From positions 12,276,001-12,340,000 of the forward strand of contig JAGIQG010000018.1 in the NCBI GenBank assembly GCA_024679065.1: DNA of 64,000 bases, read 5' to 3'. The number at the start of each line of letters is the position of its first letter. Position 1 is the first letter of the stretch. Positions 3,693-29,142 of this stretch are shown one piece after another. The notes below the pieces were generated by a model that saw only the letters and a program-made list of their open reading frames with translations, had not been told where the DNA came from and ran no database searches. This DNA is from Sphyrna mokarran (taxonomy: Eukaryota). The position numbers and the translations under genes are program-made.

Positions 3693-5004
3693 ATCATCAG
3701 AGAGGAAAGAATTTGTTAGCCTCATGGGGTACTCAGATGGACTGATGTCTCTCTCTCTCTCATGTCAGTGGGCTATGGCATCATTCCATTGCAAATGGCT
3801 ATCTGCACAAACTAAGAGAATGTCTAAGCTCTCTCTGCTCCTCTAATTCTGGTCTCTTGTGCATCAGATTTTGATCATTCTGCCAATGTTTCAGCTGTCC
3901 TGGCTGTAAGTCTGAAATTCCCTCCCTCTATTCTTTCACCATGATCAATCTTTTGGCTATCTTTCCCAATCTCCCCTTCCATGGTTTGGTGACAAAAAAT
4001 GTCTTCATTAATATTTTTATCATACCATTCTTAGGAAATTGCTTGAAATATTTTATGTTAAGTATGCTACATATATACAAGTAGTTTGTGCTTAATCTGG
4101 TGATTCCTTCCAAGTGCACCTTGCTTCTGCAGATGCTGGACCTGTGGGTTTAACTGATTATACTCTGGGATGTTCAGAACCACAAACCTCTAGTTAATTG
4201 TAATGGTTCTGTATAGTCTGCATTCCATTTTTCCCCTCAGCCAGGTAATTACAGTCTTAAGCTTTTCAAGTTGACAATCTACAATTAGGGCAGTTCCCAG
4301 AAGGGCCACTTAGCAGGTAACCATGTGAATCCAGATTGTTTCACCACATCCTGTTGTACACAGACCATTTGCCAATATGCATTCTCTGAGGTGGTTGCAG
4401 ACAAACCTATAGACAGACTTTGCCCTTTTTTGGCGGGGGAGGGAGCAGAAGAGCAAAGAGGAAGGAGACAAGAAAATTGCCTGAAGAAATAAAATCAAAT
4501 TCAAAATTTATCTTCAAAATATAATTTTGTAACGAGAGAAAAGAGATGTACGCAAAATATATTCTTCATTAAGCTGCAGTAAATACAAGCATGTCAGCAA
4601 TTGATCAGAGTTGAAAATGATTAATGCTATCAACAGGTTAAACATCTACATGAACTTGTATACCACGTCCTGTGGTCAATGGACTGCTCATTACTTTTAC
4701 CATATAAAGCTTTCTTTGTCTGCTTAAGGAGAGGAAGGATGTGAGTTAAACAAAGTAACAAAGTAAAAAGCCTAGCTTATTTAGTATGAGTAAATGAGAA
4801 AGAATTCTGTGTGCACAAAAGGCTTTACCATTTGGGTCTTACTTTCTATATTTGTACAGAGATATATGACTACAAACATTTTTTGCATGTTCAATGGGTA
4901 ATGCATTGTGAAGAATTGTCAAAATTAGTTTACAGAATAGCAACATTAAAAAAGATACAAGTTAGATAAAGATAATTTAATTAATGTGTTGTACATTCAG
5001 TCAA

Positions 5005-5401
5005 ATATTTTCTTATCCTTTTGGCTAAGATCATTAACTATGATAGAATAAGCTGAACTTTCTCTACATTCCAGCGGTGATGGTAACACTACATTCTGCA
5101 CCCTCTCCTTTCCTTCTCCTCTCTATACTCTACTTGATGGTATGGCACGCAAGAAACAAGACTTTTCTCTGTATCCCAATAGATATGATAATAATAAATC
5201 AATTCAAGGTCAAGCAGGAGATCAAGCGTGAGATCAGGTGTCATGCCTGCTCGTCAACTTGGATGTAATATATCCTTTTTGTGGGGACCATGAATTGGAT
5301 TCATTTTAATTGCTTCTGCAGCAAGGAAAAAGGATCAAGGAATTGCCCTGTCCACTCCATGCACTGGTCTTCTCTAACTCAGGTACGAACAAAATATTTT
5401 T
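5005..5401 (+). mobile_element. U2 snRNA-derived element, copy 1 (interrupted by a LINE tail at about 5034-5207)
   Basis: CCTTTTGGCTAAGATCA (5017-5033) equals U2 nt 13-29; after the insert the sequence follows U2 colinearly to ttgccctgtccactccatgca (U2 TTGCTCCGTCCACTCCACGCA). Confidence 0.75.
5034..5207 (+). mobile_element. LINE 3' UTR fragment (Rex1/Babar-like tail)
   Basis: Ends gcacgcaagaaacaagacttttctctgtatcccaatagatatgataataataaatcaattcaa, resembling fish/shark Rex1-type tails; splits the U2-like element. Confidence 0.5.
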
Positions 5402-6025
5402 CCAAAATCTTTTTTGTCCTGCTTGGCTGAAATTTTTTCACACAAAAATCCATTTCTCAGCAATCAATTCCTCGAATAATTCTCACCCAATTTAACAGGC
5501 CAAAGACCATTTTGTTTTCCTGACAGCTGGACACCATTTCCCAAAGTGCTTTTGAAGTTATTTATGCTTATTCACAAATCTATTCAAACAACAAAACAAA
5601 GGCATTTCTATTAAGCAATGTTCAAAAAAAGTTGCAACAAATGCAGTCCACAAGAAATCACACATTTTCAGAGTCATGATTTTTCACTAACAGTTTACTT
5701 AGAATCTGCATGACCTAAAATCCTTCAAAAAATGCAATTGTGGGTCCAGGTAATCAACCAATTGAAAGAAGTTTCAGTTCTGTTGAATCTGAAACTTCAG
5801 AACTTCATGGTACTTCTGAAAATTAAGGTGACAGTGAAGGATGCAGTTACAATATCACAGGGACACAAAGAAAAAGAAAAAACCCCAACTTAACATGGTA
5901 AAAGATTGAAGGAGCTTTACAACAACCAAATAAAGTTGAACCAAATACTACTGAAAGATTGGTGAACAGGCTATTGCATTTTCTTGGCAGGAGAAGGCCA
6001 CTTCAAGCCATCAAAAAGTTGAAAG

Positions 6026-26119: not shown

Positions 26120-26298
26120 GGTAAGATCAGGCGTCAGATCAAGCCCAAGGTGGATGCAAAGCCATATCTCGGCAGCTTAGATCTTACGATTTGTCTCTCT
26201 TGTGGAGACCGTGAATTGGATTGTTAGATTTTGAAGTTCGTTTTTGGCGCAAACAAGGAGTGGATTTGTGTTTGCCTGGTCCACTCTGAGCATTGGCG
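26120..26298 (+). mobile_element. U2 snRNA-derived element, copy 2 (5'-truncated, followed by a V-SINE)
   Basis: taagatcaggcgt...gtttttggcgca...ggagtggat...ttgcctggtccactctgagcattggc is colinear with U2 and shares tgtgg(g/a)gacc(a/g)tgaattggatt with copy 1. Confidence 0.7.
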
Positions 26299-26299
26299 T

Positions 26300-26570
26300 G
26301 GGGTGACATGGTGGCAAAGTGATTAGCACTGCTGCCTCAGAGTGCAAGGGACTCGGGTTCAATTCCTGGCTTGGGTCACTGGGCGGAGTTTGCACATTAT
26401 CTATCTGCGTGGCTTTCCTCCGGGTGCTCTGGTTTCCTCCCTCATTCTGAAAGACGTGCTGGTTGGGTGCATTGACCCGAACAAGCGCTGGAATGTGGCG
26501 ACTGTGGGAATTTCACAGTAACTTCATTGCAGTGTAAATTTAAGCCTTATTTCTGACTAATAAATACACT
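26300..26570 (+). mobile_element. V-SINE, tail type 2
   Basis: ggtggcaaagtgattagcactgctgcctca head, ggtttcctccctca core, tttcacagtaacttcattgcagtg tail. Confidence 0.88.
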
Positions 26571-26941
26571 TCTAAAAATACTTCCAGCTTTGGAACTAAA
26601 ATATTTTTTAAAAATCTACACAGACTTTAGGAAGGCCTTTGAAAGGGTCCAACATGACAGAATAATCAGAAAAGTAAAAGCTGACAAGATTCTAGCCAGA
26701 GGCAAATTATTCCAAATTAGGCTATGCAGCAAAAAGCAAGGGTTTAATGGATGTTTTATGACTAGAAGTCTGTTTTCAGTGGGGCTTCTCGCTCCACTCA
26801 GGCCTCTTGCTTTATATGACATATATTGAAGAACTGGATTTAAATTTGGGGACATGATTCAGAGTTTGCAGGTGATATGCAAATTGTGATTGATGGTGAA
26901 TATACTTTCATTATGGCTGACTGAAATGGCCGAATGACTAA

Positions 26942-28981: not shown

Positions 28982-29142
28982 GTAGAGATGCCGGCACTGG
29001 ACTGGGGTAAACACAGTAAGAAATCTGACAACACCAGGTTTAAGTCCAACCGATTTATTTGATAGTAAACTCACACAAGAGTTTACTATCAAATAAATCG
29101 GTTGGACTTAAACCTGGTGTTGTCATACTTTTACTGTGTTTG
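28982..29142. mobile_element. Short Penelope-like fold-back insertion
   Basis: Perfect 47-bp inverted repeat (29026-29072 / 29079-29125) with 6-nt loop; TSD aaaccttat at 28973-28981 and 29143-29151; same terminal sequence as the 53775 insertion. Confidence 0.8.

Follow-up and report, generated by a model that had tools for sequence, protein, structure and literature searches.

A dispersed repeat family rebuilt from U2 snRNA in Sphyrna mokarran, best read as a SINEU-like retroposon

The two U2-like segments found in a 64,000-nucleotide stretch of the Sphyrna mokarran genome (contig JAGIQG010000018.1, positions 12,276,001 to 12,340,000, hereafter the window) belong to a dispersed, inactive repeat family that was rebuilt from the whole U2 snRNA. 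The family is best read as a SINEU-like retroposon whose origin is independent of the crocodilian families, the SINEUs being compared by description. We propose, with a probability of roughly 0.7, that its members are the dead copies of a non-coding repeat, which an L1/Tx1-type LINE copied via RNA and whose source copies lay inside U2 genes, where RNA polymerase II transcribed them. The elements read directly from the DNA are the family, the succession of its subfamilies from A to B, the ends of its copies, a new hairpin, and the presence of a further family (C), of LINE ends and of one B copy at nt 38/39 of U2. The features of the window are the following.

5005 to 5033, plus strand: 5′ head of copy 1, U2 nt 1-29 (5017-5033 exact, 5005-5016 decayed)
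5034 to 5203, no strand assigned: unrelated, very common repeat, a 170-nt insertion splitting copy 1 (BLAST)
5204 to 5401, plus strand: body and A/T-rich tail of copy 1, subfamily A (profile scores, identity, tree)
5219 to 5266, plus strand: decayed family hairpin in copy 1, placed by alignment (the hairpin was tested on other copies)
26121 to 26297, plus strand: copy 2, subfamily B, truncated in 5′ close to U2 nt 20, with an interruption towards the 3′ end
26136 to 26184, plus strand: decayed family hairpin in copy 2, placed by alignment
26297 to 26575, plus strand: abundant tRNA-type SINE inserted into copy 2 (BLAST)
26587 to 26614, plus strand: probable 3′ remainder and tail of copy 2 (10/11 match to the end of B)

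Both copies align colinearly with U2, as the initial annotation had it, and the 17-mer that it singled out at 5017-5033 is identical to nt 13-29 of L031, one of the U2 genes of this genome. Copy 1 scored 140 bits with the profile of subfamily A (built without locus L084), 73 with that of B and 38 with U2, and its identities were 84.4% to A, 77.2% to B and 71.4% to U2. For copy 2 the scores were 162 bits with B, 96 with A and 12 with U2, and the identities 89.0, 79.8 and 71.6% respectively. In 600 kb of randomly picked genome pieces, BLAST found the repeat splitting copy 1 another 29 times, the longer hits at 70-82% identity. A target duplication around copy 1 is possible (5002-5012 versus about 5391-5403), and is indistinguishable from the tail. 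The SINE in copy 2, which may resemble shark HE1/V-SINE, produced 125 BLAST lines over the window and 600 kb of random pieces. Behind it, at 26587-26614, the match to the B end is followed by an A/T/A tail; this match is short, and its identity as the remainder of copy 2 is uncertain. Elsewhere in the window, a long near-perfect inverted repeat at 29011-29139 is matched by several miRNA hairpin models below their cut-off; it is probably formed by two pieces of one common repeat in opposite orientation.

The two window copies are 69% alike (110/160) and come from different subfamilies. At 25 aligned columns A and B agree and both differ from U2: the derived base was found in both copies at 19 of these, and 7 of the 50 copy-states were those of U2. 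Shared derived changes had been claimed from the two copies, and are thus borne out. In alignments of 30 loci for each subfamily, the unit measures ~220 nt and is colinear with U2 over its whole length, from nt 1 up to the 3′ end. It contains reiterated AGATCA units and a duplicated AT-rich stretch ahead of the Sm position, has lost 8 nt of loop IV, and closes with an A-rich tail. The reiteration of AGATCA noted initially is therefore family-wide, except that one unit of copy 1 is probably a duplication from the 170-nt insertion. The extra AT-rich stretch is also a family feature, as a duplication. As for the Sm-site region, a T-run does occupy the Sm position, but it is preceded by G and not by the A of U2.

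How large is the family? First-look searches of the 2.77-Gb genome returned 2,148 candidates with copy 2 as query, 480 with copy 1 and 5,287 with a near-consensus copy (40 candidates scored per query); the counts of 2,148 and 5,287 are far from the few hits that would have spoken against a family. A diagnostic 21-mer absent from U2 had 352 exact genomic matches, and its reversed control none. Using the pooled identity to the consensus outside the 21-mer at 30 of those loci (85.3%, four of the loci being of a further family, D), we estimate about 9,800 copies; averaging per copy instead of pooling leads to 16,000. A sample of 599,900 bases chosen at random contained two family matches, against 0 for the reversed control, from which a similar copy number follows, with a wide error. 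The high copy number suspected from two occurrences in 64 kb is therefore real, at an estimated ~10,000 copies.

A tree with the true U2 genes, which had been suggested as a check, separated 14 U2 rows from 51 family rows at 100/100 (65 rows, bootstrap not settled). Within A, to which copy 1 belongs, lies the nested subfamily B (95/88), to which copy 2 belongs; A is the older subfamily and B the younger, one succeeding the other. The family thus shares diagnostic changes foreign to U2 and forms its own branch relative to U2 genes and pseudogenes, as expected for amplification from a modified master. None of the top 30 copies exceeded 93.9% identity to the consensus (B, the best of these 30), from which we conclude that the family is inactive. 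Near-identical family words also occur in the DNA of several organisms, and the U2-derived radiation of this genome comprises at least four families. The idea that the copies are independent decayed U2 pseudogenes, which exist in this genome and which the mere 69% likeness of the window copies might evoke, is refuted by the 21-mer count, the separate branch from U2 pseudogenes and the shared duplications, deletion and 25 derived columns, and deserves next to no credence.

Subfamilies A and B are not a working U2. Their branch-point motif is changed, 8 nt of loop IV are deleted and the Sm position is altered, so that none of the motifs of a functional U2 variant (branch-point pairing, loop IV, Sm site) is intact. 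Near-consensus copies scored 31-32 bits with the Rfam U2 model, whose cut-off is 46, and a scan of the whole window with this model (RF00004) matched neither copy. Between the two origins first offered, a SINE or retrocopies of a variant U2, the SINE is favoured over an intact variant gene, because these working motifs are lost and no intact, promoter-bearing variant gene was found.

In their place, the family has a new 50-nt hairpin, in which the duplicated units pair with the former stem II region. Its z score is −2.9 in A, −4.1 in B, and −3.2 and −2.8 in two versions from family C; the same stretch of U2 lacks it. Over 39 copies, 85.8% of the hairpin cells were paired, against 31-45% in slid controls, and cells altered on both sides numbered 64, against 27 in shuffles, the structure being derived from the consensus of the same sequences. 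This covariation stems from about three or four source sequences, and therefore represents a handful of events rather than 39 independent ones. We infer that the hairpin may have been under selection in the source RNA, where it could have offered the LINE protein a hold or have masked the working sequences of U2.

The copies carry the marks of retroposons. The sequence shared by A and B copies stops at U2 +1, with nothing common upstream, and 10 of 26 copies of the pattern-picked set (30 loci minus 4 of family D) are 5′-truncated. Target duplications of at least 12 nt flank 7 of 104 copies (A, B and C), compared to 1.2% of 821 shuffled pairs; in locus L003, a 16-nt duplication ends exactly at U2 +1. 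The majority of copies have no clear target duplication. Tails contain a poly(A)-signal-like hexamer in 45/61 B and 10/33 A copies, and a T-run followed by an A-run in 26/61 B and 15/33 A copies (background 3.4%), a layout which is also that of the 3′ end of a LINE in this genome. The family is thus described by a U2-derived 5′ part, a length of ~220 nt (below 500 nt), dispersion in many copies with shared non-U2 changes, a 3′ poly(A) tail and occasional target-site duplications, all of which characterise the SINEU class. Of the three retroposon hallmarks that had been called for, the A-rich tail is common, target duplications are occasional, and the association with a LINE is clear for C but thin for A/B.

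This association is as follows. LINE 3′ ends adjoin family copies at L080, L112, L117 and L121, and at none of 60 random 10-kb pieces; two of these loci, L112 and L117, hold stacks of LINE and C copies with target duplications. Conversely, among 20 LINE loci picked by their protein, one has C behind it and two continue with U2 at nt 39. Family copies also neighbour each other: a second family match lies within 1.5 kb at 17 of 117 loci (one of them present twice), or 13 once two split copies, one U2 remnant and one weak hit are excluded. All 13 pairs are on the same strand and often of different subfamily; the estimated copy density predicts about 2. The LINE carries a zf-RVT domain, from which alone its clade is known. 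The named relatives of its protein are all from sharks and rays (best 71%), which marks the host as an elasmobranch, and a comparison with protein clusters retrieved only zf-RVT clusters of unnamed proteins. Considering this domain and a C-terminal motif, we take the LINE to be of the L1/Tx1 group. No intact element was present among the 150 candidates scored out of 1,442; the longest open frame in these 150 is 491 aa. Co-location with the LINE is clearest for C and thin for A/B. We consider it likely that the proteins of this LINE mobilised the family.

The true U2 genes, identified with RF00004, form four near-identical units of ~8 kb at C949:17326629-17351148 (L031-L034), and ordinary U2 pseudogenes are scattered in the genome. 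Near the array, a fifth, 5′-truncated copy and two split U2 genes were also seen. Family C (1,868 candidates) opens with U2 nt 1-38 and a unique piece; another head of U2 follows, then a pair of hairpins and lastly an A tail. The first 75 nt of the C consensus are predicted to fold back over an intact U2 branch-point motif. In the U2 cluster, at C949:17389775-17390226 (L099-L100, L107), a C copy splits a U2 gene at nt 38/39, and promoter-like DNA, with homology to the region upstream of U2 genes, is kept ahead of this split gene. At L203 (C557:766560-766636, minus strand), U2-promoter-like DNA is followed by U2 nt 1-38, the first bases of C and a broken piece of LINE coding sequence. The upstream U2-promoter-like match of a third C head is weak and partial (E 0.002). 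Two more C copies, L124 and L051, are followed by U2 from about nt 39 and have no promoter, as expected for retrocopies of a read-through RNA.

Exact junctions between a tail and U2 nt 39 were found 8 times (1 in the control): three involve LINE 3′ ends, one a C copy, one a B copy (L237), and three are unclear. L237 is the sole A/B match in the genome to a stricter tail-to-U2 junction pattern. A continuation of U2 from nt 39 follows the insertions at L236, L238, L242, L052 and L258, the first four being stacked LINE 3′ ends with short U2 stubs from nt 39 between them. Family D (loci L028:960-1480, L217, L223, L226 and L228) has a U1 head (E 1e-4), a piece of U4 (nt 23-47, 22/25) and a B-like body ending before the Sm position. 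Families C and D thus reuse the A/B hairpin, with added U2, U1 and U4 pieces.

We then come to transcription. SINEs transcribed by RNA polymerase III have no internal oligo-T, according to the available part of PMC4494074, and T4 and T5 runs lie inside A, B and C, which makes such transcription unlikely. A U2 promoter was found in front of A/B at 0 of 117 loci, and the promoter searches matched only U2 genes and C-headed loci, no A/B locus among them; such searches could miss a source that is old or absent from the assembly. In four runs guessed to be RNA, the contigs contained only divergent family pieces within longer records, which is uninformative on free small RNA. The heads of A/B extend to about U2 nt 31-35, short of 38, so that template switching to U2 RNA fits equally well. 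In two B copies, L022:1459-1497 and L029:1454-1491, an extra piece of U2 nt 1-47 lies in front, with no promoter. We put transcription of A/B from U2 genes at about even odds, and rate it higher for C.

Taken together, these data are consistent with the following cycle. An L1/Tx1-type LINE would copy the family RNA into new sites. Once inserted into a U2 gene at nt 38/39, a 5′-truncated copy would gain the first 31-38 nt of that gene as its new head; this would account for the reiterated AGATCA units. RNA polymerase II would then transcribe the source copies sitting in U2 genes behind the U2 promoter. In its full form, the proposal is that an elasmobranch lineage of promoterless SINEs parasitised U2 genes, being dropped at nt 38/39 by the LINE, transcribed from the U2 promoter and renewed in its head at each round, with a hairpin selected to hide the splicing sequences; this complete version we advance tentatively, as slightly less than an even bet.

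Two other explanations were considered. A SINE moved by the LINE could have been transcribed passively from upstream promoters of the host or of transposons, its heads being acquired by template switching and the insertions at the U2 site being dead ends. Passive transcription and template switching were both proposed for SINEU, whose heads are explained by the latter (Kojima 2015, available part of PMC4494074), and the extra U2 nt 1-47 pieces of L022 and L029, which lack a promoter, agree with this, as do the family pieces inside long contigs of the runs guessed to be RNA. However, read-through from outside promoters would leave a common sequence upstream of U2 +1 in some copies, and there is none; moreover, C starts with exactly U2 nt 1-38, and L124, L051 and L237 carry U2 nt 39 onwards behind the tail, as if derived from a split U2 gene. 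We regard this scenario as unlikely. Somewhat more improbable, in our opinion, is that a single, rapidly evolving variant of the U2 gene, under an snRNA promoter of its own, gave rise to all copies by retrocopying. It would be a master gene as for BC1/ID, without any cycle through U2 genes, and this source, an RNA gene of the host, would be lost by now or was not found. The coincidence of the copy ends with the 5′ and 3′ ends of U2, the single succession from A to B, the compensatory changes preserving a structure and the rarity of A/B at the U2 site are all compatible with such a gene. They are outweighed by the altered branch-point motif, loop IV and Sm position (31-32 bits against the Rfam 46), by the lack of any A/B locus with a promoter or, in the top 30, above 93.9% to the consensus, and by the reworking of the same hairpin with U2, U1 and U4 pieces in C and D, an evolution in the style of SINEU.

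The preferred reading, a SINEU-like retroposon transcribed from U2 genes, can be compared to known systems. SINEU-1 to -3 are described from crocodilians only, and their transcription was left open (Kojima 2015, PMC4494074, available part). As presented there, SINEU-3 resembles A/B in being short and nearly all U2, with shared rearrangements, a poly(A) tail and internal oligo-T, and in being old (85-91% to consensus), inserted in tandem and likely partnered by a Tx1-type LINE. It differs by a ~50-nt internal U2 deletion, a ~40-nt non-U2 end, ~1,600 copies and Mariner-N4_AMi as target; judged by this description only, A/B have neither that deletion nor that 3′ end, but are U2 from end to end, with internal duplications, the new hairpin and ~10,000 copies in an elasmobranch. 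SINEU-1 and SINEU-2 recall C and D, U1 or U2 heads having been added recurrently, as C and D add U2, U1 and U4 pieces to the same body. Two differences are that their transcription was left open, whereas C is found here within promoter-bearing U2 genes, and that a U4 piece, present in family D, is not mentioned for them in that part of PMC4494074.

Keno, of the Tx1 clade, and Utopia are LINEs targeting U2, behind whose insertions U2 resumes at nt 39 (PMC4640811, available part). This is the junction seen here behind C, one B copy and several LINE ends, and a weakened specificity outside U2 genes is common to both cases; Keno and Utopia are autonomous and coding. The snRNA retropseudogenes moved by L1, which occur in this genome too, share U2 sequence, A tail and target duplications with A/B; but each derives from U2 itself, whereas A and B share derived changes and form subfamilies. 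In the literature we found no paper on snRNA-derived SINEs in cartilaginous fishes, and none is mentioned in the available parts of PMC4640811, PMC5381603, PMC5499810 and PMC7245038; the family may already be catalogued in Repbase or Dfam.

The family points to an independent and larger radiation of snRNA-derived SINEs outside crocodilians. It inflates the annotation of snRNAs in shark genomes and, being present in several organisms, also provides lineage markers. With a family member lying directly behind a U2 promoter, at the known target base of a LINE, the question of transcription becomes testable. If true, the parasitism of U2 genes would answer how snRNA-headed SINEs are transcribed, and the class would have arisen a second time, independently.
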